Shown: positions 1 through 64,000 of the stretch, in pieces
How the letters are laid out: each line of letters starts with the position of its first letter
Position numbering within the stretch: the stretch's first letter is position 1
Source of the DNA: Dictyostelium discoideum
Lineage: Eukaryota
Assembly: GCA_000004695.1 (NCBI GenBank)
Contig: CM000152.2
Coordinates: forward strand, 2,624,001 to 2,688,000
Length of the DNA stretch: 64,000 bases
Direction of reading: 5' to 3'
Translations under genes and position numbers: made by a program
The notes under the pieces: model-generated
Databases searched by the model: none
The model's input: the letters and a program-made list of their open reading frames with translations, nothing else
Told to the model about the DNA's origin: nothing

Positions 1-706
1 TGGGTCAGTTACCATAACAGCAACTTCACCAGTACCGAGAGTTGATTCAACTTTGTAAGCAACACCAATGGTGAAAGTGGTACCGTGTGGACCAGAAGCT
101 GGTGAAACATCGCTAGTTAAAACAGTGGCATTACTATTTTGATTTTTTGGGCAAACAGTTAATTCTTCACAAATCCAAACTGGATCAGCATCTTCACCAA
201 TGTTATTGAAAACTTTAAGGAATTCATCAATACCAACGATATCACATAAAAGATTGCAAGCACCTAAAATTAATAAAATAAAAAATAAAAAAATAAAAAA
301 AATAAAAAAAAAGTATTAAAATTTGTTTGAAGTATTAATAGTAAAAGTAATAATAAAAATAAGATTTTTTTTTTTTTGTTTTTTTTTTTTTTCTTAAATC
401 TTACCTTGTTCAATATTATTTGGGAGTAATGAACAAACGGCACCACATGAAGTGGCAATACCACCTGAAATAATTTTTTCTAAATCACCCATATCGTTAT
501 TGATGAAGTCGACGCTAATTAAAAAAAATAAAAAAATAAAAAAATAATAATATTAGATATAAAATGAAATATTATTATTTTTATAATTATTTTTTTTTTA
601 TTTCTTTTTTTCACACATACCATGTTGGACATAAACTGAATTGGAGATCAGCTTTGACTAATGAAGCAATGAATAAAATAGCAATTGTGATATATTTAAT
701 CATCAT
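1..706 (-). CDS. Secreted small cysteine-rich protein with saposin-like (SAPLIP/amoebapore-like) Cys spacing; exons 621..706, 405..514, 1..263 (3' end beyond window start)
   Basis: Minus ATG at 706 followed by hydrophobic signal peptide MMIKYITIAILFIASLVKA; donors GTATGT (620) and GTAAG (404), AT-rich introns ending AG; junction phases consistent (…LCPT|CVDFINNDMGDLEKIISGGIATSCGAVCSLLPNNIEQ|GACNLLCDIVGIDEFLKVF…); paired cysteines. Confidence 0.55.
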
Positions 707-1509
707 TTTTTATATATATATTCTCTATGTTTTTGATAAAAAATGAAAAGAAAGAAAAAAAAAAAAAAAAAAAAAAAAATGAAAAAACGATTCAAAAAAA
801 AAAAAAAAAAAAATAATAATAATAAAAAAAAATAAAAAAAAAAATAATTAAAAATATCTTGAGGTCGATGATTTCATTCACAATTGCACAAACCCATTTT
901 TTTAAAAATTTGTGATTTTTTTTTTTTCCAATAATTTTTTTTTTTTTTTTTCAAAACGACTAATTTTTGTATGTGATTTTTTTTTTTTAAACAACTACCT
1001 TTTTGTATGTGATTTTTTATGATTTTTTTTTTTTCACTTTTTTTTATTTATTTATTTATTTTTCATTTTCCATAGTTCACGTATAAATGTCTTTTGAAAA
1101 TTGTTTAAAAAATAAATTGAGAATAAATAGATTTTTAAAAAAAAGATTGATTAAAATTGTATCAAAAAATAATTTTTTTATTCTTATCATTTCTTTTTTT
1201 TAATTTTTTATTATTTTATTATTTTATTATTTTATTAATTTTTATTTTTGTTTCTGAATTCTAATTAAATTTTTTATTTTTTTTATGAAACAAACTGCAA
1301 GAAAAAAAAAAAAAAAAAAAAAAAAAAATTAAAAAAAAAAAAAAATTTAATGTGGTAAACAAAATTTTATTTTTAGCTTTTTTTTGAATAAATTAAGTAC
1401 TTCTTCTGATAAAATGATTAAGAATTTCAATAGAAGGGACACTGGTATTCGAAGATATTATTGTGTAGTTTTGAGAACTTGTGGTGGTCGAGGAAATTAA
1501 TTCTGGTGG

Positions 1510-1620
1510 GTTTTGTTGGTGAATAATAATTATACTCAAATAAATAATAATATTTTATCAATTATTATGGCTTAAAATATTATTATTTATTTGAGTGTAA
1601 TTGTTATTCACCAACAAAAC
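1510..1620. repeat. Near-perfect 47-bp-stem hairpin (arms 1510-1556 / 1574-1620, 17-nt loop); candidate hairpin RNA or MITE
   Basis: Left arm gttttgttggtgaataataattatactcaaataaataataatatttt vs reverse complement of right arm differs at 2 positions, both G:U-compatible. Confidence 0.6.
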
Positions 1621-2011
1621 ATTATCATTTCGGCTTGAGATTTTAGGTCTTTTTGAAGCACGTAGTGGGACGTACCATTTAACTAAAAATTAAAGTTAGC
1701 ATCAAAATTTATTTAATTTTTAAAAATGATATAAATAAATTAATTATAAAAGTATATATACTAACATTTTTAAAAGGTTGTAGTTATTTCCAAAGAAAAT
1801 GATGGCGGTGAGGTCGAAAACAAGAGATCAGAGTTACCCAAACAAATTCAATCCCAGCACTTCACTTTGGTTGGTAAAATCACAGCAATCAAATCTGGTT
1901 ATGTTCCACAAATGAACAATAGTTTAAAAAGAGTGAGTGTTGAATTTCCTGCCTCTGTTGGTGATGTATTTATTAACAATTCTGGTTTCGTATGTATAAT
2001 TTCAACTTTTT

Positions 2012-2400
2012 TTTTTTTTTGAATTGGATAACGCAATTATTAGTTGCTTCTCCTTGAGATTCTAGATCTCATTTTATTTGTAGTTTTTACAGGGTCTCTA
2101 AAAGAGGGGTCACTTTTTTTTTTTTTTGTTTCAAATTTTGAATTGTATTATTACTTTTGATTAAAACATCTTTTTTGTCCAAACTTTTTTCTAAATCTTT
2201 TTTTATTTTATCATCAGCTTCATGATTGATGTTGATGACATATTTGAATTGTTTTTTTTTTATTTGAGTTTTATCCACAATTTCACTTATTTTTTGTAGG
2301 CATTTGTGTTGTTTGTAATTTTCATCTTATTTTCTTTCGATTTTTTTTATATTACTTTAAAAAGTTAAAAATCTGGAAATTTTCTGCAGCTCTTTGTGTT
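2012..2400 (-). mobile_element. TRE5-A non-LTR retrotransposon remnant (A/B-module incl. frameshifted ORF1 start fused to C-module, oligo-A tail)
   Basis: Reverse complement matches 51760-51960 (B-module/ORF1 N-terminus MKITNN…DKTQ.KKKQFKYVININHE.DDKIKKDLEKSLDKKDVLIK) and the C-module 53753-53844; T-run 2012-2025 is oligo(A) on minus strand. Confidence 0.7.
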
Positions 2401-3143
2401 TTAATTAGTTCGCGTATGACTTGTTGTCTATGAATTATTATTTCTTTTTCATCGTGGATGAGTTTGTTTCTTTTGTGCCAAATTATATAATTTCAACAAT
2501 CTTATAAAATATATATAAAATATAATATACTTTATGTGAATACATTTTCCTGGCGGCTTCAACTTTATCAGAATGGGACATTTGTTCGATTCTTTCAGGA
2601 GTATATCTAAGTTTATTCATTATCATAAAAATAAAATGTTTTTTTTATCTATTAATTGTACAATTGTAATATTATAAATAAAATGGTAAATTTTTTGTTT
2701 TTTTCATTTTAAGGTGTCCTAAGTTTGTCATTAATTAAAAAAAAAATTAAAAATAAATTTATTTAATTTGAAATCTATGAAAATTAACTTTTATAGATTT
2801 GGATTGTTTATTTTTTATTTATTCCCATATAAAATTTAAAAAAAAAAAAAAAAAAAAAATCTTGCAATAAATTTAAAAAAAAAATACGAGTTTTTATTTT
2901 TTTTTATTTTTTTTATTTTTTTTTTTTTTTTTTTAATTTTTTTTTTTTTTTCCCATAAATCTTAAAAACATCACCATTTATTTTTTGTTTCTAAATTCTA
3001 GTTTAAAATTTAAATTTTTTTTTATTTTATTATTTATTTTATTTCACACCAAAATGTTCGTTAATATTCCGCGGAATCCCAAATAATAAATGATTCTATT
3101 TCATTTTAAATTAAAATAACAATAATAAAAAAAAAAACACTAT

Positions 3144-3182
<39 letters not shown>

Positions 3183-3201
3183 TTTCAATTCATAATTTTC
3201 A

Positions 3202-4062
3202 ATGAACAAAAATAAAATAATAATAATAGCAATATCTTTGTTTTTTATATATTATTTCTTTTTATCAAGTTCAATTAATAAAAATAATACCAATAACAAT
3301 AATAATTTAAATAATAATAACAATAATTATAATAATCATAATAATTTAACAATTCATCGAAAACAAAAAATGTCAAAATTATTTAATTCAATCTTTATTT
3401 CTCATGGAGCACCAAATCTTATCTTAGATCATTCGGATAAAACAAGAGAATTTTTAAAAACATTATCAAAAAATCATTATGGTTCAGTAAAACCAAAAGC
3501 AGTTTTATTAATATCTGTAAGTATTATTACTATTATTATTATTTTATTTATATATTTATATATTTTCAAAATTTTAATTTTTTTTTATTGTTATTATTAT
3601 TTTTATTTTTTTTTTTAAATAGGCGCATTGGGAAGAAAGAGAATTTACAATTCAAACTAAACCAGAACCAGATGTAATTTATGATTTCGGTGGATTTGAA
3701 CCAGAGATGTACAGAATGAAGTATCCAGCAAAAACATCACCAGAATTAATTGATAGAGTATCAGAATTATTTGCAAAAGCAAAGATACCATTAGGAAAAG
3801 ATAATAAACGTGGATATGATCATGGTGCTTGGATGCCAATGAAATTGGTATATCCAGAAGCTGATGTACCAATAGTTCAATTATCTATAAAAGAAAATTT
3901 AAATGCTGCTCAACATTTTCAAATTGGTACAATTTTAAGACCATTAAGAGAAGAAGGTTATTTAGTTTTAGCTAGTGGTGGATCTGTTCATAATTTAAGA
4001 GCAATTTTTGATCCAAAATATCATTTAGATCCATCTTGGGCTTCAAAGTAAATATTATTAAT

Positions 4063-8054: not shown

Positions 8055-8481
8055 TAGTATTTATAATTATATGAATTTAAAATTCATAATAATTAATTTA
8101 TAGATTTCAAGATTAAAGTTAAAATTAAACATTTAAGACAATATTTTTCCCCAAACAAAAATAAAATCCATTCTTTTAATTTTTTTTTTTCAAACAGCAA
8201 ATTCTGAAATTTCTTATATAATCTTTTTGAAAAATAAAAATAAATTAAAAGTTATTTATTTGTAATATATTGAGATAGGTATTTTTTTTTTTTTTGTTGT
8301 ATTTTTATTATTTTTATTTAAGTTTCAACAAATGATTTATAATTTAAAAACCAATATGGATAAAATGTTTAATTTACAATTTGTTTTTTAATTTTTCCTA
8401 AAGCTTTGAAAATACTATTTTTTTTTGAATTGGAATTGAAAATACTATCAATATCGCTATTAAAAATTAAATTTTCAACAA

Positions 8482-8553
8482 GTTTCGATAGCTCAGTGGA
8501 AGAGCAAGCGACTGCAAATCGTTAGGTCGCCAGTTCAATCCTGGTTCGGAACT
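8482..8553 (+). tRNA. tRNA-Cys (anticodon GCA)
   Basis: Cloverleaf: acceptor GTTTCGA/TCGGAAC, D-arm GCTC-AGTGGAA-GAGC, anticodon loop CTGCAAA, T-arm GCCAG-TTCAATC-CTGGT. Confidence 0.85.
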
Positions 8554-8666
8554 TTCATTTTTAATTTTTTATTTTGTTTTAAATGATTGCCCCCTCTGTT
8601 TCCTCTCGATTTATCATATTTTCATTAAAATCTGACCATATTTAAAAGAGATTCAGTCATTTTAAA

Positions 8667-10105: not shown

Positions 10106-10953
10106 TGGTAGTAATCAAAATCAACCAATGGAATGTCAGAGGTTGGGGCACTGACACCTCCTTCAAAAACAAAACAGACTTTATCAAATCCCAATCCCCC
10201 CCAAACTCATTGGCACTAACCATAGTCAATGAACTCAACGCCGACGCAACACAAGCACACCAGCTATTTCCTGGCTCCATCATTAGCGCAACCAACAGAG
10301 GCAACGGAATAGGAATACTAAACCACAACAACCAAAACATAAAACTCTCACCAATATTCATAATAGAAGGTAGACTAATAATATCAGACATTCTAATAAA
10401 AGATACCACAACGAGAATCTTGGCCATATACGCCCCGGCCCAACCTGATAAAAGAAAAACACTAGCTTCAACACTAAACAAACACTTCAACAACCAATAC
10501 CACAACCTAACGTCTAACCCTAATAAAAACATCGACATCATAGCAGGCGACTTCAACTGTTTAGACTTCAATGACAATCACACATCAAATGATGACCAAG
10601 GCAACTTGACAACACAATCCCCAGATGAGATGGCCACAGTAATCGAAGCCATCAGAATTTCAAATAACCTAATGGATATGGACCAACTAAATAAAAGACC
10701 CACCTTCTCAAGAACGATACACAACACAAACAATAACCTCACAAGAATCTTGGAAAGGAGACTAGACAGAATATACCTTAACAATAGCATAATCAACTAC
10801 AGCCAATTATACTTAAGGAACCTAATCCCCCCAAAAATTAACAACATACCTCTATCAGATCACAACTTCCTATCAACCACCTTCACTCTACCCAACATAC
10901 AGATGAACATGCGCAGATGGAGATTAAAAAATCCTCAATCCTCTCAAGCATAA
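10105..10953 (+). CDS. TRE3 ORF2 N-terminal part: apurinic/apyrimidinic-like endonuclease domain
   Basis: WNVRGW…, IAGDFNCLDFNDNH, LSDHNFL motifs of L1-type EN; overlaps RT ORF by 37 nt. Confidence 0.7.
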   Translation: MVVIKINQWNVRGWGTDTSFKNKTDFIKSQSPPNSLALTIVNELNADATQAHQLFPGSIISATNRGNGIGILNHNNQNIKLSPIFIIEGRLIISDILIKDTTTRILAIYAPAQPDKRKTLASTLNKHFNNQYHNLTSNPNKNIDIIAGDFNCLDFNDNHTSNDDQGNLTTQSPDEMATVIEAIRISNNLMDMDQLNKRPTFSRTIHNTNNNLTRILERRLDRIYLNNSIINYSQLYLRNLIPPKINNIPLSDHNFLSTTFTLPNIQMNMRRWRLKNPQSSQA

Positions 10954-13808
10954 TGCTTAAGAAAATAGACTTCCTACTTAACGATTATTCAAGGGAGTTG
11001 TCATCCAACCATAACTCTATTTCCTTCTCTCAACTCAACAGCTTACTGAACAAAATAAAACAACTATACACAGAATTTCAAAAACAAAACGACTACAACA
11101 ATAAGGCAAACATCAAAAATCTAATCTCCCTACTAGAGACAGAATTTAAAGACCAAGCCTTCGCAACCCTTTCAGCAATAAATGAATCTAAAAGAAGAGA
11201 AGAACAACTTAAACAAGAATTGAACAACTATTGCGAAGAAACCTCACTCAAGTACATCTCCGCGAGAATCAAGAAAAGACATAATGATTTCACCATCAAC
11301 GCAGTAAAAGATGCACAAGGTAGAACAATTAACAAACAGGAATTGATCGAAGAAGAATACGTAAAATATTACTCAAATCTTTATGACTACAAAGAAGATG
11401 ACCCACCATCTCATTATGAAATGTTGGAAAATTGGACAGTGACCAGGGACTCAACATGGGACAACCTTGAAAACGAATTCACATCACAAGAGATCCTAGA
11501 AGTAATAAAACAATTGAACCCACACAAATCTCCAGGCCCAGATGGAATTCCAAACTTATTCTACATAACACACAAAGAAAAACTAGCTCCAATACTGGCC
11601 TCAGCATTCAACGACACTCTAAGAAATCCTCATCTAATTAGCAAAAATTACAAAGAAGGCCTCATTATCACGATACCTAAAAAGGGAGACCCCGAACTAA
11701 TCAAAAACAGAAGACCAATTACACTGGCCAACTGTATATATAAAATCCACTCAAAACTAATAAACAATAGAATAATCCCAATACTAACGAAAGTGATCAA
11801 CCACAATCAAAAAGGTTTCGTACCAGGCAGATTCATTCTAGATAATATCATATCAATGAACGAATTAATCAACTATTGTAATGATAAAAGAATAAACGGA
11901 ATAATTACACTATATGATTTCGAAAAAGCTTTTGACTCGATCTCACACGGTTCAATACTCAGATCACTACAACACATCAACATTCCAACCAATATAATCA
12001 ACCTGATAATGAATCTACTCACCAAATCTGAAGCAAGAATTGAAATTAATGGTAGAACTACTATACCCTTTGAGATCAAAAGAGGAGTTAAACAAGGAGA
12101 TCCACTATCACCCACCCTGTTCGTCCTTGTAATAGAGGCTTTAGCTAGAAAAATTTTACAAGATGACCGAATTACTGGCCTTCCTCTAAACAACAGCAAC
12201 CACAGAGAGAAATTCCAAAGCTTTGCAGACGACTCGGCTTCAATGGTCCCAGACTCTCAACAACTTGAATTAGTACTACAACACTTCAATTCATTTTGCA
12301 AAGCCACTTCCTCAAAACTAAACATCGACAAATCTTCATCAATTCTTATAGGCAACCCAGACAATACCAACCAAAGAATTCCAATATCTACAAATCCAGA
12401 AAGATACTTGGGATACTTCTTCACAGGCAAAGGGATAACAAGAAAAATGCCAGAAATATTAAACACAATAAGATCATCCTTAGTACTATGGAAAACCACT
12501 GACTCAACAATCAAAACCAAAACCAACATCCTCAAAGCATTCGCACTCTCTAAATTAACCTACTATTCATATGTAGAGAACTTTAAGGAAGAGGAATTAA
12601 ACCAAATCAATAAATTAGTCGAATGGTTTTTATCGGCACCAAACAACAAAAATGCTAGTGGATTTCAAGTTATTAATTTAATGAGAACCAAAAGAGCAAG
12701 ATACCCACTAAAAGTAGGAGGCTGGAACATTTGGAATATAGAATTGAGACAACTGGCGCAGAAACTTTGGATCATAAACCAGTTCATCCTAGCACTAGAA
12801 ACCAAACAAACAAACTCATCTCATCACAAAAGCTGGGAATATCAGATCCAAAAAAACAAATTCACATCCAGATACCTAAAAGAAAACTTAGACGAATGGA
12901 ACAAAATAAGAATAAAAAAAGCAATCTTCAACAATAATCTCACATCCATAAAAAACGAAAATGGACAACCACTTTCACTGGCAGAATGGTATACCACAAT
13001 TCAAGACCAAAATCCAACCATCCCTAAAACGGAATTCCAATCATCTCTAAACTTAAGAGGCTACAGCTATAATCAACTCTTCAACAATATACTGAAGATA
13101 AAAGACCCTAAAACAAGAGACACAATGTTTAGATTCCATGCCAGATGCCTTCCAATAAACTACCTTCACAACAAACAATGCCCACTCTGCAAAGAAGATA
13201 TGAGCAAAGACCCATACGGTCACCTGTTCTTCTCATGCAAGAAAACAAAACAATTCATAAAAATAAATAAACTCAAAAATTTCATCTTTATTACCACAGG
13301 CAAAGGTAAAAACTGGCACCATACAAGAATTAGGCAAAATAACAATTTCATTAATAGAATAACTCCAAAATTATCACCGACAGCCAAAAAAGATCAAGAA
13401 GTGAATGCAGATTACGCCAACCACAGATTCCACAAAGAATACTTTGAATGGAACTATAAAGCAATAGACTATGATCTAACCAGATCATTCGCATATAGAA
13501 ACCTAATGGCCCTTATCCTCCACAACATTTGGATTTGGATTTGCAATCAAATATACAGTGAAGATCCTTTAACAGATGAATCACTATCATACAGCTCCCT
13601 TCTAAAGAAATGGCACAAATTGGCCACTCTAGAATACATCAAAAAAGCAAAAGATCTGAAAAACTTATCAGCAAAAGACCATAATAACTTCAAAGATCCT
13701 AAGATCCTTCTCACTTCAACGATCAAGCTAAGAAAAACAACAGCTAATTACTATTGTATTCCAGAATCATCTCTCCCAAATATTATATCTTTTGATCAAT
13801 TCATATGA
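10917..13808 (+). CDS. TRE3 ORF2 reverse-transcriptase part (-1 frame relative to EN ORF)
   Basis: RT motifs PKKGDPE…RPITL, YDFEKAFDSISH, FADDSA; C-terminal Cys/His region. Confidence 0.75.
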   Translation: MEIKKSSILSSIMLKKIDFLLNDYSRELSSNHNSISFSQLNSLLNKIKQLYTEFQKQNDYNNKANIKNLISLLETEFKDQAFATLSAINESKRREEQLKQELNNYCEETSLKYISARIKKRHNDFTINAVKDAQGRTINKQELIEEEYVKYYSNLYDYKEDDPPSHYEMLENWTVTRDSTWDNLENEFTSQEILEVIKQLNPHKSPGPDGIPNLFYITHKEKLAPILASAFNDTLRNPHLISKNYKEGLIITIPKKGDPELIKNRRPITLANCIYKIHSKLINNRIIPILTKVINHNQKGFVPGRFILDNIISMNELINYCNDKRINGIITLYDFEKAFDSISHGSILRSLQHINIPTNIINLIMNLLTKSEARIEINGRTTIPFEIKRGVKQGDPLSPTLFVLVIEALARKILQDDRITGLPLNNSNHREKFQSFADDSASMVPDSQQLELVLQHFNSFCKATSSKLNIDKSSSILIGNPDNTNQRIPISTNPERYLGYFFTGKGITRKMPEILNTIRSSLVLWKTTDSTIKTKTNILKAFALSKLTYYSYVENFKEEELNQINKLVEWFLSAPNNKNASGFQVINLMRTKRARYPLKVGGWNIWNIELRQLAQKLWIINQFILALETKQTNSSHHKSWEYQIQKNKFTSRYLKENLDEWNKIRIKKAIFNNNLTSIKNENGQPLSLAEWYTTIQDQNPTIPKTEFQSSLNLRGYSYNQLFNNILKIKDPKTRDTMFRFHARCLPINYLHNKQCPLCKEDMSKDPYGHLFFSCKKTKQFIKINKLKNFIFITTGKGKNWHHTRIRQNNNFINRITPKLSPTAKKDQEVNADYANHRFHKEYFEWNYKAIDYDLTRSFAYRNLMALILHNIWIWICNQIYSEDPLTDESLSYSSLLKKWHKLATLEYIKKAKDLKNLSAKDHNNFKDPKILLTSTIKLRKTTANYYCIPESSLPNIISFDQFI

Positions 13809-21963: not shown

Positions 21964-22040
21964 AATTACCTTATTAATTTCAGCAGCCATATTAATTTCA
22001 GCATGTACATAGCTGCCAAAATTAATATGGTAATTTTGGC
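21964..22040. repeat. Palindromic repeat family 2 unit (…aattaccttattaatttcagcagccatattaatttcagc…), abutting gap
   Basis: Matches inverted units at 23683-23860 and 24497-24640. Confidence 0.6.
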
Positions 22041-22396
22041 ATAGAAAAAAAAAAAGTCAAAGTCATTTAATTAATAATCATCTCAAATATAAACAAAATT
22101 TTAGTACTAAAATTAATATTATTATTATTTTTATTTTAATAATTATAATAATAAAAAAAAAAAAAAAAATTTTCATATTATTTTATTTATATCTTTTATT
22201 TATTTTTATCTTTTTATTTTTATTATTAATTTTATAATTTATTTTCATTTCTTTTTTTTTTAGTTGATATATATTTTTTTATTATTCATTTATTTCTAAG
22301 GCTAACAAAAAAAAAAAATTAAAAATAAAAAAAAAAAATAAAATAAAAAAAAAAAAAAAAAAATTAAAATAATTTTTTTTTTTTAATTTTTTTTTT

Positions 22397-23152
22397 TTAA
22401 TTATCTACTCTTCTACTTACTCTTTTGTTACTAACAGATGAAGTTTCGTTTGAAAATCTTTTGGTGAAAAAATCAGCATCAGATTGTAATTGATTAGCTC
22501 TTTTTTTACCCGTTTTGTTTTTGTTTGATTGAGTTGTGATTCCACCATTATTGGAAGTTGTTGCAGCTTCATGTGTTGATCTAACTTCGGTGGTAGAGTG
22601 CTCGATTGCTTTTCCAACTAGGTCATCTGTTGATTTTCTTTTGGTTATTTCGATATCCCTTTGCAATTTATTTTTACTTGAGAGTTTGGTGGCCTCTATT
22701 CTAGAAGTAGGCTCAGTATTGTAATAAGCCTTTATAATAGCAGAATGATTATCTGCTTTATAATGATTACTGATGTGCTGTTGACACTGGTTTTGATTAA
22801 TCATATGAGAGACACCATCTTCATCTTTGTTAAGCCTAACCTTCTCTATAATCTTCACTAAGTCTTTTGGGTACCAATTTTTTCTTTTTATCTTTATCAA
22901 TATAAAACACTTCTTTAATAGTTGCCGTACCATATTCTACATTCTCAACAACATACTGTTTATCCAAAATGTTTTTCCAATAGCTTATATTTTGTCCACT
23001 CAATTTGGTATTATGAAATTTATAATCTATTTTAAATTTTACATCTTCGTCATATTTTTCCAAGAGTTTTTTTAATTTATTTTTATTATTTTTTCAATTT
23101 CTGTTGCAGAAAGTTGATTATTTAATTTATTGTCTTTACTGAAGACCATTTT
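22397..23152 (-). pseudogene. Hypothetical K/N-rich protein gene interrupted by frameshifts/stop in A-runs (three overlapping ORF pieces)
   Basis: ORFs 23152→23075, 23063→22836 and 22933→22397 are collinear but in different frames; frame switches fall at homopolymer A tracts. Confidence 0.4.
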
Positions 23153-23682
23153 TTGGAACGAAAACTTTAAAAAAATAAAAAAATAAAAAAAAAAATACTT
23201 TTTTTTTTTAATTTTTTATTTTTATATTTTTTTTTTTATATTTTTTTTTTTTAAATTTTTTTTTTTAATTTTTTTTTTTTATTTTATTTTTTTTAAGTTT
23301 CGAACAATTATATATAAAAAAAAAGTAAAAGATATCCCTTCGGTTAATTAAATAATAATAATAATAATAATAATAATATAATAATAATAATAATAATAAT
23401 ACTTATTTCGAAATGTTTAAACAATCATACAGTTTAAAATTAAATAAATTGTTTTAAACCACCACTTTTTTTGAACACATGAAAATAAATAAGATATAAA
23501 AATAATAAGATAAAAAAAGATTTTTTTTTTTTTTTTTTTTTTATTTTATAATTATTCTTGTCGTCAGTATTGTTACTATAATTAATCCCATGAGTTTTTT
23601 TTATTATTATTTTTAATTCTTTTATATTTGAGATGATTATTATTAATTAAATGACTTTGAGTTTTTTTTTTTATATTTCTAT

Positions 23683-23860
23683 GCCCAAAATTACCATATT
23701 AATTTCAGCAGCCATATTAATTTCAGCCTAAAATAGTTGGTCTGTGCATGCCAAAATTAATATGGCTGCTGAAATTAATATGGTAATTCTAGCAGACATA
23801 AGTCCCATGCCAAAATTACCATATTAATTCCAGCAGCCATATTAATTTTGGCATGGGACA
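23683..23860. repeat. Palindromic repeat family 2, complete composite copy (three alternating inverted units)
   Basis: gcccaaaattaccatattaatttcagcagccatattaatttcagc … reverse-complement unit … direct unit. Confidence 0.65.
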
Positions 23861-24227
23861 TGCAACATAAAATTTTTATTGCCATTGATTAATTTTTTAG
23901 GTTTTTTTATTTTGTTTTTTTTTTAATTTTTTAAGTAGAAGTATTTTTAAAAAATTAATAAAAAACGAAGGTTAAATAAATAAAAATTAGAGCCAGTTTT
24001 CCCTCAAAATAAAAAAGGCTATTTTCAATACGTCCTGGTGAAAAATTTCACAACAACCTCATACTGTTTATGTATTGCACATTATCATATTTATTTTTAT
24101 TATTCATTGTGTGTCTCAAGACCTTATAAAATTGACAGATATCTCTTTTTGAAAAATCTATTTTTATTTATAATTTTTTTTTTTTTTTTTTATTTACTCT
24201 AATAATTTTTTATAAATTTCCTTGATA

Positions 24228-24500
24228 CTATTTTTCCTCGATAATCTTAAAACAATTCCAAGGATATACACATGGGCTATTGTTGAATTGTTGTTTACAA
24301 GAAGGTGATTTATAAATTTGGATATTACTTGTTATTGGAATTCCTTCGGTTTGTATATCGTCAACATATATAACACTAACACTTGGTGGTATTTCATATA
24401 TTTTTTGATCGAATCCATCCAATAAAAAAAGTGAGGAAACACCTGGTGGTATTGAACCACCCGATAATGGTTTTTTAATAGCTCCAACATATAATGTTTG
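24228..24500 (-). pseudogene. FNIP-repeat exon fragment (B-box/FNIP family, divergent subtype like 48370..48830), 5' part replaced by palindromic repeat
   Basis: …LYVGAIKKPLSGGSIPPGVSSLFLLDGFDQKIYEIPPSVSVIYVDDIQ…YKSPSCKQQFN…; no B-box exons upstream. Confidence 0.6.
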
Positions 24501-24640
24501 CCCCATGCCAAAATTAATATGGTAATTTTTAGGAGCCATATTAATTTCAGCATGCATATACAACCTGTTTTTAGGCTGAAATTAATATGGTAATTTTAGC
24601 CTGCTGGAATTAATATGTTGAAATTGGCATGGAACATATA
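24497..24640. repeat. Palindromic repeat family 2 copy inserted into FNIP exon fragment
   Basis: catgccaaaattaatatggtaatttttaggagccatattaatttcagcatg… with inverted partner. Confidence 0.6.
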
Positions 24641-28474: not shown

Positions 28475-28570
28475 AAAATTAAATGTTGTAGGGAATTTTT
28501 TTTGAAATTTCGCTTTCTAAACGGCAGTGAATTTTTACACTAAAATACACTGTTATGCATGGTGTAAAAA
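28475..28570. mobile_element. MITE-like short repeat family 1 (TTGTTGTAGGGAA… / …CAGTGAAWTTT internal palindrome) copy
   Basis: gttgtagggaattttttttgaaatttcg…cagtgaatttttacac…gtgtaaaaattcactaaaa; related copies at 30655, 35709, 40901, 59534 and partial 28815-28880. Confidence 0.5.
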
Positions 28571-35550: not shown

Positions 35551-35583
35551 AATTTGTTGTCCTAAAATTGAAAATATGAAAAA

Positions 35584-35615
<32 letters not shown>

Positions 35616-35708
35616 ATAATAATAATTAACCATTAAAATAGGAATTAATAATTAAAAACAAAAAAATAATAAACTTTATTTGTTTTTTTGAAAAAAAAAA
35701 AAATTTAA

Positions 35709-35812
35709 GGTCAGTGAAATTAAATAAAAAAATTCAATGCTACTGTAGTGAAATTAAATAGTAAAATTCACTACGCTGGGCAGTGAAATTTTATTGAAAA
35801 TTCCCTACAACA
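35709..35812. mobile_element. MITE-like family 1 copy truncating array copy 6
   Basis: aatttaaggtcagtgaaatt…cactacgctgggcagtgaaatttt…ttccctacaacaa; same outer motif as copy at 59534-59632 (reverse complement). Confidence 0.5.
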
Positions 35813-51506: not shown

Positions 51507-51535
51507 TGCGACTTTTGGTCTCCCTGATTAAAAAG

Positions 51536-51607
51536 CTCCCCATTCGGGAATCGAACCCGAGGTACCAGTGTGAAAGACTAGAGTGTTACCGACTACACCA
51601 ATGAGGA
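51536..51607 (-). tRNA. tRNA-Glu (anticodon UUC)
   Basis: TCCTCAT-TG-GTGT-AGTCGGTA-ACAC-T-CTAGT-CTTTCAC-ACTGG-TACC-TCGGG-TTCGATT-CCCGA-ATGGGGA-G; all stems pair. Confidence 0.85.
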
Positions 51608-51719
51608 TTTGGTTTGAATTTTGATTTTTTTATATAATAAAATTTCACGTTTTTTGGAAAAAAACAAACAACAACAACAATCTCTTTTTTTGATTATTTC
51701 ATTTTTCATATAAAAAAGA

Positions 51720-51754
<35 letters not shown>

Positions 51755-51829
51755 GGAACCAAGTTAATTAGAAAATTTCCAGATTTTTAACTTTTTAAAG
51801 AAAAATAAAAAAGATAGAAAGAAAATAAA

Positions 51830-53164
51830 ATGAAAATCACAAACAACACCACAAATATTAAGCAACACAAATGCCTACAAAAAATAAGCGAAATTGTGGA
51901 TAAAACTCAATTAAAAAAAAAACAATTCAAATACGTCATAAACATCAATCACGAACCAGACGATAAAATAAAAAAAGATTTAGAAAAAAGTTTGGACAAA
52001 AAAGATGTTTTAATCAAAAGTAATAATACATTCAAAATTCTCACAGACAGTATTAGTACAGTAATCTATTTTGTAAATATGTTTGATGCAGAATTAAAAG
52101 GACAATTTATAACCACTATAAGACCAAAAAATATGTATACAGATTTTGATTGGTATAAATCACTCACAGAAATAGAATGGGTAATAGAAAATGAAGGATG
52201 TAAACTAATTAAATCAGAAATTAAAGGCGAAACTCTAATTATCAAAACAGTGAAAAGAGTCGTAGAAGAATTTGACACTATCATTGAACTAGACAATCTA
52301 ACATTAATTGGACACTCCAACAAAGGATGGAGAGATCAAACCTCATTACCAGAAAATCAAGAAGAAAACAAAAATAAAAAACAATCAGATGAACAACAAC
52401 CACAATCTACATCAGAACAAATACCAAAACAAGGAAAAAGAACAATCATTATCCCACCAATCACATCCTCATCTAATGATAAAACATTTATGGCCCTAGA
52501 TGATACAGCTCAAAAGGTAATAGAAGCATCACTAGAAAACGTAGATGAACTAACAAGAATAGAGAATGAGATCAATACACAATCGATAAACAATCAAGAA
52601 ATTAAAACAAAATCAGAAAAACCTATCGAACCACCATCTCCATACAATACACCAATAAAACAACACGGCGAAACAAAGGGACTAACAACGGAAGAAAAAC
52701 TTAGAGAGGCAAATGATATCTTCGACTTCACCAGCCCAAACACTGATGCAATAAGAAAAATAGAATTCCCACTTTCAATCCCTTCAAATCAATGGTTCTT
52801 CTCCTCTCCAATAAAACATATCATGAGTTTCAGCCCAACCTATGGTACACCATCGAAAATTATCGATTCACCAAGTAAATTGTTAAACACACCAAAAAAG
52901 AAACAACAAGACAAAACAAACAAGACCAACAAAACACCAGTCAAACCAAAATTGGGTGAATATGGACAAAAAAGCATAAAAACAAAAATGGATGAAGATA
53001 TAGACAACTTCAACAAGGAAATTCTAAAACAAATCAATAAATCAAAAAACCCCACAAACACACAAGACCAACAACACAACGAACAAAGTAAAGATCAGTT
53101 AGAAGACAAAATAAACCAGAAACTTCAAAAGGTAGATAAAAATCTACCCCAAATAAAACTATAA
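51830..53164 (+). CDS. TRE5-A ORF1 protein
   Basis: 444-aa ORF; N-terminal 60 aa repeated in 3' B-module and in remnant at 2087-2330. Confidence 0.7.
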   Translation: MKITNNTTNIKQHKCLQKISEIVDKTQLKKKQFKYVININHEPDDKIKKDLEKSLDKKDVLIKSNNTFKILTDSISTVIYFVNMFDAELKGQFITTIRPKNMYTDFDWYKSLTEIEWVIENEGCKLIKSEIKGETLIIKTVKRVVEEFDTIIELDNLTLIGHSNKGWRDQTSLPENQEENKNKKQSDEQQPQSTSEQIPKQGKRTIIIPPITSSSNDKTFMALDDTAQKVIEASLENVDELTRIENEINTQSINNQEIKTKSEKPIEPPSPYNTPIKQHGETKGLTTEEKLREANDIFDFTSPNTDAIRKIEFPLSIPSNQWFFSSPIKHIMSFSPTYGTPSKIIDSPSKLLNTPKKKQQDKTNKTNKTPVKPKLGEYGQKSIKTKMDEDIDNFNKEILKQINKSKNPTNTQDQQHNEQSKDQLEDKINQKLQKVDKNLPQIKL

Positions 53165-58766: not shown

Positions 58767-58866
58767 NNNNNNNNNNNNNNNNNNNNNNNNNNNNNNNNNN
58801 NNNNNNNNNNNNNNNNNNNNNNNNNNNNNNNNNNNNNNNNNNNNNNNNNNNNNNNNNNNNNNNNNN
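58767..58866. other. Assembly gap (100 N)
   Basis: Run of N. Confidence 1.
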
Positions 58867-59540
58867 TAGATAACAAACCAAAACCATCAATTTCACTATT
58901 TGCAAATAAAACAAGGAAAGGAAGAGAGAATAGATCAATATTATATTACCTTTTAATATCAATTAAAAATCAAATATCAAATGATGATTTTTTAATTATG
59001 GAACAATTAGTAACTATATGTTTTAAATTATATAGTGACTCTTTTGATGAAAATGATTTAAATTCACTTCAAGTATTAATTGAATCATTTAATGCAAAAG
59101 TAAATTTAATTACTGAAACAGAAATAATGAATTTCCACTTGTTGTTACATTATCCAATCTATATAAAAAATTGGGGTGCACCAAAATACACTTCAGCTGA
59201 AACTTTTGAAGCACAATTATCAAGAATTAAAAATTATTTAAATAATAATACAAATAATAGGGATGAACAATATGAAAGGGTTACCAAATTAAACATGGTG
59301 AAATTTTTTAATTCAGTAGATAAATTAAAAAGTATTGAGCCTGAAAGTACAGCATTAATTATTGGTAACAAAATAAAAAATCCAGGTAATATAGATAATA
59401 TAAAAATTAAATTAGATTCATTATTTCAAAATTATAAAAATATAACTTTTCACTCATCAATTAAAAATAATAAAGAAATATACAATATTGGTGATGCAGT
59501 TGAAGTTGCATCAGATAATGAACTTTCAGGTATGTTGTAG
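58867..59540 (+). CDS. Hypothetical protein, 5'-partial (ORF open from gap edge), ends at MITE-like insertion
   Basis: Frame open from 58867 through Met 58998 to stop 59538-59540; stop lies 5 nt into repeat copy starting 59534. Confidence 0.45.
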
Positions 59541-59632
59541 GGAATTTTCCATAAAATTTCACTACAGTAGCGTAGTGAATTTTATTATTTAATTTCACTA
59601 CAGTAGCGTAGTGAAAAAAAAAAATCACTGAC
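59534..59632. mobile_element. MITE-like family 1 copy (gttgtagggaatttt…cactacagtagcgtagtgaa ×2 …aaatcactgacc)
   Basis: Reverse complement aligns with 35709-35812; possibly terminal repeat region of adjacent Tdd-4-like transposon. Confidence 0.5.
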
Positions 59633-59735
59633 CTTAAATTTTTTTTTTTTTCAAAAAACAAATAAAGTTTATTAAATTGAAATTTTATTTTTTGTTTTAA
59701 TTATTATTTTATTTATTTTTATTATAATTATTGTT

Positions 59736-59774
<39 letters not shown>

Positions 59775-59914
59775 CAATTTTTTTTTTTAAATTTTTTTCA
59801 TTTTTTATTTGTTTATTAAATTGTATTTTTATTTTTTGTTTTAATTATTATTTTATTTATTATTATTGTTAATTTTTTTTTTTTTTCAATTTTTTTTTTT
59901 TTAATTTATTTTTA

Positions 59915-60310
59915 TTAATTTATTTTTATTAACTCCCTGAGTTGTTCAATTGCTTGATTTACCATATCACTGTAAACACTGCACACAATTGAATTTTTTC
60001 TAGCTTTGTTACCTCTGGTGCATTTGATGTTTTTGCATTTTCCTTTGTATACAAAAAAGTCCAAATATAATTCGTTTTCTATTACAGTTTTTACACAATG
60101 TTGGTGAAATTGTTTTGATTTTAATTCTAATGCTTCTAACATCATATTTGAATTTTTAACGATTAAAGCATCACCACTATTTACATATAGTACTTTGGCT
60201 GCTTTTTCGAGGAATTTAGTCAAATTTTCCTCTGAATCTAACTATTCTTCATTGCCATATTCAATGGCTAAATTTCTTAAGAGTTTTATCGAATCTATTA
60301 ATTCTTCGAT
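59915..60310 (-). pseudogene. Transposon-associated small ORF (MIEELIDSIKLLRNLAIEYGNEE*LDSEENLTKFLEKAAK…CKNIKCTRGNKARKNSIVC…) with in-frame TAG
   Basis: Minus ORF 59915-60223 extends upstream in frame through a stop at ~60245. Confidence 0.3.
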
Positions 60311-60549
60311 CATTCTTTTTTTTTGAAATTTTTTTTTATTTTGTTTTTTCAATTTTTTTTTTTTATTTTGTTTTTTCAATTTTTTTTAAGTTTTATTTTT
60401 TTTTATTTTTTTTTATTTTTTTTAACAAATGTAATTTTTTTTTATTTTTTTCAATTTTTTTTTTTTTTTAATTTTTAATTTTTTTTTTTTTTTTTAATTT
60501 TTTGTGTTGATTTGTGTTTTTTTTGTTTTTTTGATTTGGCCACTTGTTT

Positions 60550-63500
60550 TTATTTTCTAATTTCCCCATACCCCCTTCTATTAATTGCAACCAAATCAAG
60601 TTCTAATTTTTGTGTCCTTGTTAACTTTGTTTTTGCAACTTTTTTTGAAGGTATCACATTAACGATTTTTCCTATTGATGGTGATTTGGAAGGTGATTTA
60701 AATGGTGATTTAAAAGGTGAATTGGAAGGTGATTTAAATGGTGAATTGGAAGGTGAAATGGATGGTGATTTGGAAGGTGATTTAAATGGTGATTTGGAAG
60801 GTGATTTAAATGGTGATTTAAATGGTGAATTGGAAGGTGAAATGGATGGTGATTTGAGAGGTGATTTGGATGGTTTAGAATGTGATTTTAAAGGAGGTTT
60901 ATTAACAATTGGTATCTTATGAGGACGGCCTCTGAGACGTTTAACAGTTGTTACTATACCACTACCAGATTGTGGTATAGTATACGATGGTATTATTTGC
61001 ACTTGAGGTATTGGTGGTACTATTTCTTTTAAATTCATATCCTTTCTCAAACAATTCATTAAATTTGGCGCTGTTGGATTATTATTTAAAAATGGGAGTA
61101 TTTCTTCTTGTTCCATTTCATTATTGAGTTTGTGTTGAAATGGATTATCGTTAATGATAGGTGGAATATTTGATGGATTGTTAAGAGCATCTTCCAAAAC
61201 CCTAAATGGATCATTTTGTGTTACCAATTGATGCAAGTTGAAATTGGATAAATCCTTACCAAGATTTTTAATAAACTGAACCAGAAATTCAATAACTTTC
61301 CCATCATTATTTAAATAAAGACCAGAAGTAAAAGAATCAATATCTTTTTGTATGTTTGGCGATGTTCTAAAAATATCAACTGTTGATTGTTTATAAAGAA
61401 CCAACTTGTTACCTCCTACAAAACCAGAGTATAAACCTTTTTTTTGAAGGCTATTGATTCCATCTTCCAAAAATTCAAGTTTATAAAGTTGTTTAGTGTC
61501 TTCCTGTATTACCTTATGAATTTTACACAAAATCAATATTTTCTATTAGAATTAAATATAAAATTTGTTAATTATTACTGTTTCATATATTATTAATCTT
61601 TATGTTTTAATTACTTACATTATTTTTTTTAATTTCTAGAAAGAGTACAGTATCACCAACTTTCAATCCCTTTGGTGGTTTTGAATTCCATTGATTTTGG
61701 TAACTTGTGAGATTTTCAAGAATAATAGCTGTTCTTTCTTCTTTTGAAACATCTGAAACACCAATTGATTGAGAGTCTTGTTCTGATTGAACATTAATAA
61801 ACAAAGGAACAATACCAACAGCTTGAGATGGTGTCATTTTAATTGTTCTTGTTTTTGTATTATTGTAATCATACAAAGCTTGTTTTAATAGTTCAGAAAG
61901 AGACCTAGAAGTACCATCAAGAAAACTAAAATTTATTTATAAATGATTAATTAATAAACATATCGATAATTTATATTGTTCACAATATCATACTCTTGTT
62001 GTTTTAATTTTGAGATCCTCTCCTTGATAGTTCGATTCAATCTTTCTACCATACCTTGAGTTGTTGGTGTACGAGGAGCTCCATGTGCTGACTTGGAGCC
62101 TGGAAAAAGTTTTAGGAATTCTTTTTGGACTTTGTTTTTAAATTCACGTCCATTATCGCAGTGCCATACTTTCACAGGTTTGCCAAAGTACGTGAGAGCC
62201 AAAAAATTGTATATGGGAACTGTTCTCTTTGTTGTCAAACATCTAAAAAATAAATGATAATTAAAATAAAAAAAGAAAACTAATAAATTAATAAATAAAA
62301 AATAAATACCTTCCAGTAGCAAATTTTGTAAAAGAATCTATGCATAGAATAATGTAAACAACATCGGTGTCGTACGGTTGTACAGAGTCATATTGGATAA
62401 GATCATCTAGTTTAGTTAGTATCTTTTCATTATCATCATCGTATGTAACTTTTTCTTTATGTTCACCTTTAATTGATGTTAAATCATAAACCAATCTTGA
62501 GTATTCCTCGGTATCTACAATTGGAGCAAAATCCTTTGTTATACCTATTAATTTATTTAAATTATTAAAAGAGTTTTAATATAAAAGTTACAAAACATCA
62601 TATAAAAATGATTGATACCAAACCTTTTATTCTATTTCGTTGGCAAATGTCACACGTATCTACTGCATCAGATACAAAAGAATACAATCCCATATTATAA
62701 TATTTAGTCTTGTAGTTCCCATAGGTTGCATCTCTTCCTACACAGCGAAGAAAAAACCACCTTTAAATTCGCTTTAAATTAAATTTAAATTTGCTTTAAA
62801 GTCCTGAATTAAAGCAATTTTAAAGGTAATTTTAAAGGTAATTTTTAAGGTTACTTTAAAATCACCTTAAAAATTACCTTTAAAATTCCTTTAAAAATTA
62901 CTTTTTTAATCGCTTTAAAAGCGAGGTCCTGAGTTCGAAGCCGTTATTTAACGGATAAATTTTTTAAAATTTTTTTTTTAATTTTTCAAAAAATTACCAA
63001 AAGGGATTCGATCCCCCGACCCTCTATCAAAGGGTAGTCTCATCAACCATTACACCATTTGATTGCTTTGATGAAAATTTAAAAATGATAGAATATTTTA
63101 TCCCCATTTTTTTGTTCTAAAATTAGATCTTTTTTATTAAAAACCTTAAATTTATGTTTAAAGGAAATTTAAATTCACTTTAAATCTACTTTAAATCTAC
63201 TTTAAATTCTATTTAAAATTAATTTAAAATAAATTTTAAAGGTATTTTTAAATATCTTAAAAATTATCTTAAAAATTACCTTAAAAATCACCTTTAAAAT
63301 CACCTTTAAAATCACCTTTAAAATTGCTTAAAAATTTATTTTAAAGCAAATTTTAAAGGCATTTTTAAATATCTTTAAAATTACCTTAAAAATTACCTTA
63401 AAAATGAATTTTTTAAACGCGGCTTTAAATTCAATTTAAATCCAATTTAAATCAACTTTTCTTTAAATTTGCTTTAAAGGTGCATTTTTCTTTGCTGTGT

Positions 63501-63808
63501 ATATGACCTTTATGCATTTCTTCCCAGAGTGATACCATTCTATAATCATTAATTACTTCTAAACACACTTCTTTTGATATATTTCTATCTCCGCCACAAT
63601 TCATGACTTTTTTTTCAATTCTAAATAATTTTTCTTTTCTGTTTCTGTTTTTTATTGGTCAGAATTTAAAAAATGATTGTGTTATTGTAAGGAAAAATAT
63701 TTACTCATCATGTAAAAATTTATAATTTTTATGTTTAGTATTTTCAAAATTATTATCTTCAATAAATTTTAAATAATTTATAATTTCATTTATTTTATCT
63801 TGTTTCAT
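60550..63808 (-). CDS. Integrase-type (retroviral-like HHCC zinc finger, DDE core, SH3/chromo-like C-terminus, AT-hook and SPxK repeats) transposase of a Tdd-4-like DNA transposon; ≥5 exons; coding sequence interrupted by 717-bp insertion (62762-63478)
   Basis: Exon 1 MKQDKINEIINYLKFIEDNNFENTKHKNYKFLHD|EIEKKVMNCGGDRN…LWEEMHKGHIHSK [insertion] RCVGRDATYGNYKTKYYNMGLYSFVSDAVDTCDICQRNRIK|G ITKDFAPIVDT…VVYIILCIDSFTKFATG|R CLTTKRTV…VWHCDNGREF…HGAPRTPTTQGMVERLNRTIKE…; introns with GTAAAT/GTTTGG/GTATTT donors, phase-consistent; A-rich promoter upstream of ATG 63808. Confidence 0.6.
62762..63478. mobile_element. Inverted-repeat element (TTTAAA-word-rich arms ~62762-62930 and ~63110-63478) with tRNA-like/B-box core, inserted between HH and CC of the transposase zinc finger
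   Basis: Arms are reverse complements (…tttaaaggtaattttaaaggtaatttttaagg… / …ccttaaaaattaccttaaaaatcacctttaaa…); termini ctttaaa…tttaaag; core has GGTCCTGAGTTCGAAGCC (+) and GGGGGATCGAATCCC (-) B-box-like motifs and a perfect anticodon-arm-like hairpin ACCCT-TTGATAG-AGGGT. Confidence 0.45.
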
Positions 63809-63823
63809 TTTGGGAAAATGAAA

Positions 63824-63858
<35 letters not shown>

Positions 63859-64000
63859 TGTTGGGGAAAAAAAAAAAAAGTTTTGGCGCAAAAAAAAAAA
63901 AAAAAATAAAATAAAAAAAAAAAAAAATAAAATAAAAAAAAAAAAAAATAAAAAAACTTATATAGAACTAATAATCAAATAAAAGATAATAATTTAATAA

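Follow-up and report, generated by a model that had tools for sequence, protein, structure and literature searches.

A probable Tdd-4 transposon copy split by a short element in a three-level transposon nest of Dictyostelium discoideum

The right-hand end of a 64,000-nucleotide stretch of Dictyostelium discoideum DNA (assembly GCA_000004695.1, contig CM000152.2, forward-strand positions 2,624,001 to 2,688,000), whose full length we call the window and whose G+C content is about 20%, carries on its minus strand an intron-containing gene for an integrase-like protein that is broken by an insertion. The locus raises the question of whether this gene belongs to a DNA transposon, to a decayed long terminal repeat (LTR) retrotransposon or to the host, and of what the inserted and flanking sequences are. 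An initial annotation had proposed a DNA transposon of Tdd-4 type with an integrase-like transposase, and the family, the terminal repeats, the target-site duplications of sister copies and the protein all fit that proposal. We put the probability at about 95% that window positions 59533-64000 (minus strand) are a copy of the cut-and-paste DNA transposon Tdd-4, a D. discoideum element of the Ginger2/Tdd group. Tdd-4 has been known since 1999, and it sits here in a transposon nest of the kind usual for D. discoideum.

Identity and boundaries of the element

The extent of the copy was determined by blastn against a full-length Tdd-4 copy of 3831 bp (comparison locus L004, 2677-6507), which served as the reference. 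The window copy corresponds to reference positions 136-3831 and runs off the window. It aligns in two blocks, with reference 136-633 matching window 64000-63500 at 99.4% identity and reference 632-3831 matching window 62740-59533 at 99.5% identity. A match of 99.4-99.5% nucleotide identity over 3.7 kb is not due to chance, and the nucleotide differences from the reference (25/25) all fall outside the transposase gene. From this alignment, the element stops at 59533 and the first ~135 bp at its 5' end are cut off by the window, with a predicted true end at about 64135; the initial annotation had placed the start one nucleotide away at 59534 and the right end beyond the window, as is borne out here. 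Sister full-length copies in other D. discoideum assemblies measure 3821-3831 bp.

The ends of the reference match each other as inverted repeats, with 98% complementarity over ~146 nt that then fades into T-rich low complexity; a lower-identity extension of these terminal inverted repeats (TIRs) reaches ~260-320 bp. Both ends carry two TTCACTACAGTAGCGTAGTGAA motifs each, and the tips read TGTTGTAGGG...CCCTACAACA, the TGTTG start fitting the TGTNR consensus. In the window, the 3' TIR of ~146 bp occupies 59533-59678 (minus strand), with the tip TGTTGTAGGG on the plus strand and its two 22-bp TTCACTACAGTAGCGTAGTGAA motifs at 59558-59579 and 59594-59615, while the innermost ~11 nt of the 5' TIR are present at 63990-64000 (minus strand, reference positions 136-146). 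The 5-bp flank AGGTA at 59528-59532 is the presumed target-site duplication (TSD), its partner lying outside the window, and sister Tdd-4 copies are flanked by the 5-bp duplications TCATC, CATAT and ATGAC. The terminal repeats and TSD foreseen by the initial annotation are thus visible in part: the left TIR is in place, the TSD is represented by the single flank AGGTA and the right end is out of the window. Elsewhere in the window, at 35571-35812, we observed a lone Tdd-4-like TIR with its tip at 35812 and 80-82% identity to the reference TIR, which is either a solo end or a piece of a non-autonomous relative.

These features agree with those given for TDD-4/Ginger2 by Bao, Kapitonov and Jurka in 2010, namely a length of 3,839 bp, long TIRs, a 5-bp TSD, TGTNR termini, and H2C2 and DDE domains with no GPY/F motif (PMC2836005). 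The element is also abundant. Protein clustering places more than 10 genes of strain AX4 and many copies in other strains at 99-100% identity to the transposase, the number of AX4 gene models being in line with a reported 'collective of 19 Tdd-4 elements' in D. discoideum (PMC3386910), and the close protein relatives of the transposase are all from this species.

The transposase gene and its product

The initial annotation described a minus-strand gene with its ATG at 63808 and at least four introns. The gene is real, and comprises seven exon segments when exon 2 is counted as two halves split by the insertion. Exon 1 (63705-63808) starts with the ATG at 63808 and matches the N-terminus of P0014, an intact protein from four identical genomic copies in GCA_054883475.1. 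The first half of exon 2 (63500-63644, with alternative starts at 63638 or 63620) encodes the HKGH of the zinc finger and the second half (62624-62738) runs from GRDATY to its CDIC. The first catalytic Asp follows in LCIDSF of exon 3 (62310-62544), the second Asp in HCDNG and the Glu in GMVERL of exon 4 (61994-62242). Exon 5 (61619-61925) holds the end of the catalytic core and the start of a beta-rich C-terminal domain with GDTV, and exon 6 (60550-61542) the AT-hook KRLRGRPHK (60942-60916), 15 SPXX units (60864-60673) and the stop codon, all on the minus strand.

Five GT-AG introns, phase-consistent and of 7-20% GC, separate the exons, with predicted lengths of 60 (or 84), 79, 67, 68 and 76 nt. 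The ambiguity in intron 1 stems from three in-frame AG acceptors that give exon starts at 63644, 63638 and 63620. With the first of these acceptors, translation of the spliced coding sequence after removal of the insert and one TA yields a 715-amino acid product that is 100% identical to P0014. Since all nucleotide differences lie outside the transposase gene, its exons and introns are intact apart from the insertion. Downstream of the stop codon, and still inside Tdd-4, a conserved open reading frame (ORF) is found at 59915-60313 (minus strand). It has no Pfam match and is called as a separate gene of 110-114 amino acids in other assemblies; one AX4 model joins its first part to the transposase C-terminus by splicing.

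The product has the hallmarks of a retroviral-type integrase. Pfam Integrase_H2C2 (PF17921) matches with 32.2 bits against a cut-off of 25.5, and the corresponding zinc finger motifs HKGH and CDIC lie at residues 79 and 112 of the 715-amino acid protein. The catalytic domain is matched by rve (E=7e-6) and rve_3 (E=8.5e-5), both under the Pfam gathering score. A sequence search of all PDB chains returned solely retroviral integrase catalytic cores, among them those of Rous sarcoma virus (RSV), prototype foamy virus (PFV), human immunodeficiency virus (HIV) and human T-lymphotropic virus (HTLV), with E values of ~1e-5. Candidate catalytic residues are D183, D221 and E258 in a 707-amino acid numbering, with a spacing of 36 residues from the second Asp to the Glu by our own count. 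In an AlphaFold (AF2) model of P0002, a close relative, the core is followed by a beta-rich domain. Foldseek matched this model to retroviral and Ty3 integrases only, aligning it with the full-length enzymes of PFV, Ty3, HIV and maedi-visna virus (MVV) over ~370-430 columns, with E values down to 1.6e-12 and those for PFV and Ty3 at 1e-12 to 1e-10.

The motifs D/D/E, HGAPRTPTTQGMVERLNRTIKE and GDTV are all seen in the transposase, and the DDE core bearing HGAPRTPTTQGMVERLNRTIKE that had been claimed is supported by both the motif and the integrase-core matches. RGRP forms the AT-hook core within KRLRGRPHK, and the SPXX units number exactly 15. A regular expression search of the 715-amino acid protein for GPY/F and YPYY found neither. 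The domain order proposed in the initial annotation, with an HHCC finger, DDE core, GDxV region, AT-hook and SPXK repeats, therefore stands except for a chromo-like segment: no chromo domain was matched by Pfam at E<=0.1, and in the low-confidence model the supposed chromo-like stretch appears to be part of one beta-rich domain shared with GDTV.

An integrase-like protein would also be expected of a decayed pol/integrase remnant of an LTR retrotransposon of Skipper or DGLT-A type, whose apparent introns would be the product of decay, and retroelement genes with RVT_1 and rve do occur near related copies at comparison loci L001 and L006. The structure of the unit makes this explanation extremely unlikely. 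It is bounded by inverted, not direct, repeats with 5-bp TSDs, is only 3.83 kb long and has no reverse transcriptase, RNase H or protease, the 3831-bp reference encoding solely the transposase gene and the 110-amino acid ORF. Its introns are identical in many copies and their removal gives a perfect 715-amino acid ORF. The best matches are members of the Tdd family, not pol polyproteins, and best homology to Skipper or DGLT-A was not found. The earlier claim that this is not an LTR pol gene is upheld.

Within the Tdd group, the name Tdd-4 was assigned from published feature tables, from the exclusion of Tdd-5 and from the abstract of the original description. That abstract (Wells 1999, NAR 27:2408) reportedly gives Tdd-4 a length of 3.8 kb, 145-bp inverted terminal repeats, TG...CA ends and 15 SPXX repeats, and is said to mention six introns, five of them GT-AG and one AT-AA with an alternative 5' site. 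The window gene has exactly 15 SPXX units and five GT-AG introns, compared with the six introns reported. The copy could alternatively be Tdd-5 or a third, undescribed Tdd-like family, given that the name is drawn from feature descriptions and that D. discoideum has several more divergent integrase-like proteins, at 36-58% identity. We consider this very unlikely: the dictyBase gene DDB_G0290955 of Tdd-5, the sole further family known of this type, falls in a cluster at 43% identity, Tdd-5 reportedly has one or few copies versus the >10 AX4 genes here, and the 15 SPXX repeats counted equal the number reportedly given in the Tdd-4 abstract. Length and TSD moreover fit the TDD-4 row of the published table (PMC2836005).

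The nested 759-bp insertion

The transposase gene of this Tdd-4 copy is interrupted by a non-coding element of 759 bp at 62741-63499 (minus strand), with the inverted terminal sequences CACAGCAAAGAAAAA...TTTTTCTTCGCTGTG and a TA repeated on either side (63501-63500 and 62740-62739). The insert splits exon 2 between the two His and the two Cys of the HH...CC finger. Removal of the insert and one TA restores HKGHIGRDATY as in intact proteins and leaves one TA, as in the reference DNA. The duplicated stretch is thus 2 bp long and the insertion adds 761 bp in all, not 717 bp, resulting in a +2 frameshift. The initial annotation was right that an inverted-repeat insertion splits the finger, but its length of 717 bp has to be replaced by 759 bp plus a 2-bp TA, with boundaries proven by the empty site in intact copies. 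As the rest of the coding sequence, introns included, is identical to that of intact copies, the insertion is recent and the sole lesion of the window Tdd-4 copy. It provides a clean natural case of one DNA transposon inactivated by another, with the coding sequence otherwise perfect.

The insert contains ~34 TTTAAA-type subterminal repeats that form long imperfect inverted arms, and a near-perfect 88-nt hairpin at 62808-62895. The matches of this hairpin to plant and animal microRNA (miRNA) families of Rfam were rejected, being far under gathering (for example 42.7 vs 94 bits); it looks like a generic AT-rich palindrome. In the centre of the insert, no tRNA was detected by ARAGORN with default settings or by Rfam at E<=1, and a 71-nt tRNA-like cloverleaf at 62994-63064 (element positions 436-506) appears only with ARAGORN thresholds lowered to 80%. 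Convergent stretches with the B-box-like motifs GGATCGAATCC and GAGTTCGAAGCC are seen at 62994-63064 and 62920-62965. At most, the central stretch may be what is left of a degenerate tRNA-derived core.

Five compared copies of the insert are 97.8-100% identical. At L001 (4722-11736), in another strain, one Tdd-4 copy contains three insert copies and a fourth lies 190 bp outside it. Two of the L001 insert copies are 100% identical, and one lacks TA flanks and came with the loss of 30 bp of target; among the insert copies at this locus, flanks of TA/TA and GA/GA occur, as well as an AA that is ambiguous. In AX4, the last residues of gene model DDB_G0282355 are a translation of the 5' end of the insert, within the SPXX block. 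Tdd-4 insertion sites in turn differ between strains. The insert family is young, mobile and repeatedly hits Tdd-4, the count of landings in Tdd-4 being biased in that the compared loci were chosen for containing Tdd-4. The L001 cluster suggests local hopping or target preference. Both transposon families have been active very recently in D. discoideum.

Two other identities for the insert were considered and rejected. It is not a Stowaway-type miniature inverted-repeat element of the Tc1/mariner group, as TA is not obligatory: another copy is flanked by GA/GA, and the full-length copy at L006 of a larger element with similar ends, element X (discussed below), by TG/TG. An assignment to thug-S by way of the multi-copy miRNA of PMC4894637 was dropped as well, since that miRNA is absent from the insert and stands beside RVT_1 genes at L001.

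Several points weigh against reading the interval as a Tdd-4 copy with an inactivated transposase gene. The rve score is 26.7 against a gathering score of 32.6, and the AF2 model of P0002 is of low to moderate confidence, with a mean predicted local distance difference test (pLDDT) score of 53. The splice sites are predictions that follow from the reading frame and agree with annotated gene models identical to this one. The name Tdd-4 was assigned from feature descriptions and the exclusion of Tdd-5. The right element end and the second TSD copy fall outside the window. Finally, splicing from a cryptic GT (63507) to an AG (62738) would take out the insert together with 9 nt and keep the frame, by which some transcript rescue is possible, with loss of the second His of the finger.

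Element X, the rest of the window and related systems

The sequence to the left of the Tdd-4 copy identifies its host. Window 58867-59532 (plus strand) matches the coding sequence of a second transposon, which we call element X (blastn against L006 3218-8251, reference 2401-3066, 95% identity; also tblastn against L002), and the Tdd-4 copy therefore lies inside X. At L002 (855-2680, 6507-8194), removal of another Tdd-4 copy and one TSD fuses two ORFs into an 839-amino acid X ORF. The X fragment in the window adjoins an assembly gap of 100 N at 58767-58866. To the left of this gap we observed an unrelated Ser/Thr-rich ORF, the join between unique DNA and the nest being unresolved in the assembly.

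A complete X copy at L006 (3218-8251) is 5034 bp long, with termini CACAGCAATGAAAAATG... and a TG/TG duplication. The X ORFs comprise about 814-839 and 275 amino acids, and TTTAAA subterminal repeats crowd at both ends. X is multi-copy in D. discoideum, with two subfamilies that are ~50% identical. X and the 759-bp insert both have CACAGC tips. The first 29 nt of the insert are identical to an X terminus in L002, and one end of the insert is similar to the 5'-type end of X, the other to its 3'-type end. By these resemblances, we identify the insert as a young non-autonomous relative of the 5.0-kb element X. The locus is a three-level transposon nest, in which X came first, Tdd-4 inserted into X, and the X-derived short element then inserted into Tdd-4.

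The superfamily of X is less clear. The X protein has no Pfam match even at E<=10, and its AF2 model (pLDDT 33) is unusable. A HMMER scan of 1.8 billion representatives returned weak outside relatives with E values of 1e-7 to 1e-3; two of the ten outside relatives that were scanned match Pfam Transposase_21 (PF02992; tnp2, CACTA-type). Profile-profile comparison (hhalign) of X with a protein set that has Transposase_21 members in it gave a probability of 99.4% over 444 columns, a value inflated by a comparison set picked by similarity to X, and aligned the motifs D, D, CxxC, H..L.H and FE. This profile alignment, the CAC termini and the 2-bp TSD point to X being a divergent family near CACTA/Mirage, of the CACTA/Mirage/Chapaev (CMC) type. 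The fuller proposal, that the insert and X form one currently active, Dictyostelium-restricted and very divergent CMC family of 5.0 kb with CACAGC termini, a 2-bp TSD and an 839-amino acid protein invisible to Pfam, is tentative and on balance doubtful. Were it true of a family so far placed in no superfamily, it would give the first such placement, and also a hint that two unrelated DNA transposons are linked by target preference or by local hopping. As a side result, X is a modest lead for classification, a putative distant CACTA/tnp2-type transposase unrecognised by domain libraries. We suspect that X and the insert appear in a 2001 repeat catalogue as DDT-A/B and DDT-S (or thug). Literature searches for DDT-S/DDT-A/thug and for the AX4 gene identifiers of the X family gave no link to X.

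The position inside X also bears on a third explanation of the integrase-like gene, by which it would be a domesticated, integrase-derived host gene that received a mobile element by chance. Its ORF and introns are perfectly conserved and Tdd-4 ORFs are transcribed and regulated, with a 25-fold rise in rblA-null cells (PMC3386910), as this account would have it. That a host gene should recur almost unchanged at numerous loci, every copy with TIRs and a 5-bp TSD of its own, at insertion sites that vary between strains and here inside the ORF of another transposon, is scarcely credible. The region is best masked as Tdd-4 with a nested non-autonomous element inside a third transposon, not as a gene, and the importance of the finding is limited mostly to annotation.

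Taken as a Tdd-4 copy, the element can be fitted into what is established about how integrases and DDE transposases act. An intact copy would make an integrase-like transposase from its intron-containing gene; the transposase would bind the ~146-bp TIRs, each with two 22-bp motifs, cut at the TGTTG...CAACA tips and insert the element with a 5-bp staggered cut. The window copy inserted into the coding region of X, and a 759-bp relative of X then inserted at a TA in exon 2, shifting the frame by 2 nt. By inference, the window copy cannot make transposase. It had been called dead, which holds for its coding capacity, but the coding sequence has no other fault and the TIR that lies within the window is undamaged. 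As at least one terminal repeat is kept, mobilisation in trans is conceivable, and several intact Tdd-4 copies could still supply it; the nested insert could in principle excise.

The window elsewhere contains host genes and tRNA-associated retroelements. A tRNA-Cys gene at 8481-8554 (plus strand) is followed, after ~300 bp, by several ORFs, among them one for an RVT_1 reverse transcriptase at 10917-13808, and in the region 51535-53164 a tRNA-Glu gene at 51535-51607 (minus strand) is accompanied by a 444-amino acid ORF that starts 223 bp upstream. TRE retrotransposons, which target tRNA genes, typically show such arrangements. At 21969-24558 lie five copies, in both orientations and with 1-3 mismatches, of the motif ATTAATTTCAGCAGCCATATT, which resembles miRNA_can_D3 (PMC4894637). 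As the same motif stands beside RVT_1 genes at L001, it is probably part of a retroelement, and a candidate thug-S repeat at 21.9-23.9 kb was dropped, the motif being an unreliable marker of thug-S.

Among known systems, the CMC superfamily shares with the insert and X the CAC... termini, the 2-bp TSD (here TA, TA, GA and TG) and dense subterminal repeats, and differs in that the X protein has no direct Pfam match. Retroviral and Ty3/Gypsy integrases and Ginger1 show the same order of zinc finger, DDE core and beta-rich C-terminal domain as the Tdd-4 transposase. In contrast to these, the Tdd-4 copy is without reverse transcriptase or LTRs and without GPY/F and YPYY, and has spliceosomal introns, an extra AT-hook and an SPXX tail. 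Tdd-5 (dictyBase DDB_G0290955; AF298206) is closer, with the same architecture and superfamily, an identical HGAPRTPTTQGMVER core and an alignment over most of its length; it differs in its ~43% protein identity to the window transposase and in having no SPXK block like that of Tdd-4.

As a separate observation, a Tdd-type terminus of Tdd-5 type, TGTAGGGAATTTTTTTTGAAATTTCGC, is present in the window at 28487-28513 (plus strand), though not at the Tdd-4 copy, and overlaps the C-terminus of P0035, a gene model of the Tdd-5 cluster. The same tip bounds elements at L002, L003 and L004, and no transposase coding sequence of this TGTAGGGAATTTTTTTTGAAATTTCGC-tip family was found in the window. The closest known system is Tdd-4 itself. 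The window copy departs from it in the 759-bp insertion in exon 2, in its position inside another transposon and in a 5' tip that falls outside the window. In common are the host species, the length of ~3.83 kb, the TGTTG termini, the long TIRs, the 5-bp TSD seen in sister copies, the multi-copy state, and an H2C2 and DDE transposase with introns, 15 SPXX repeats and no GPY/F.

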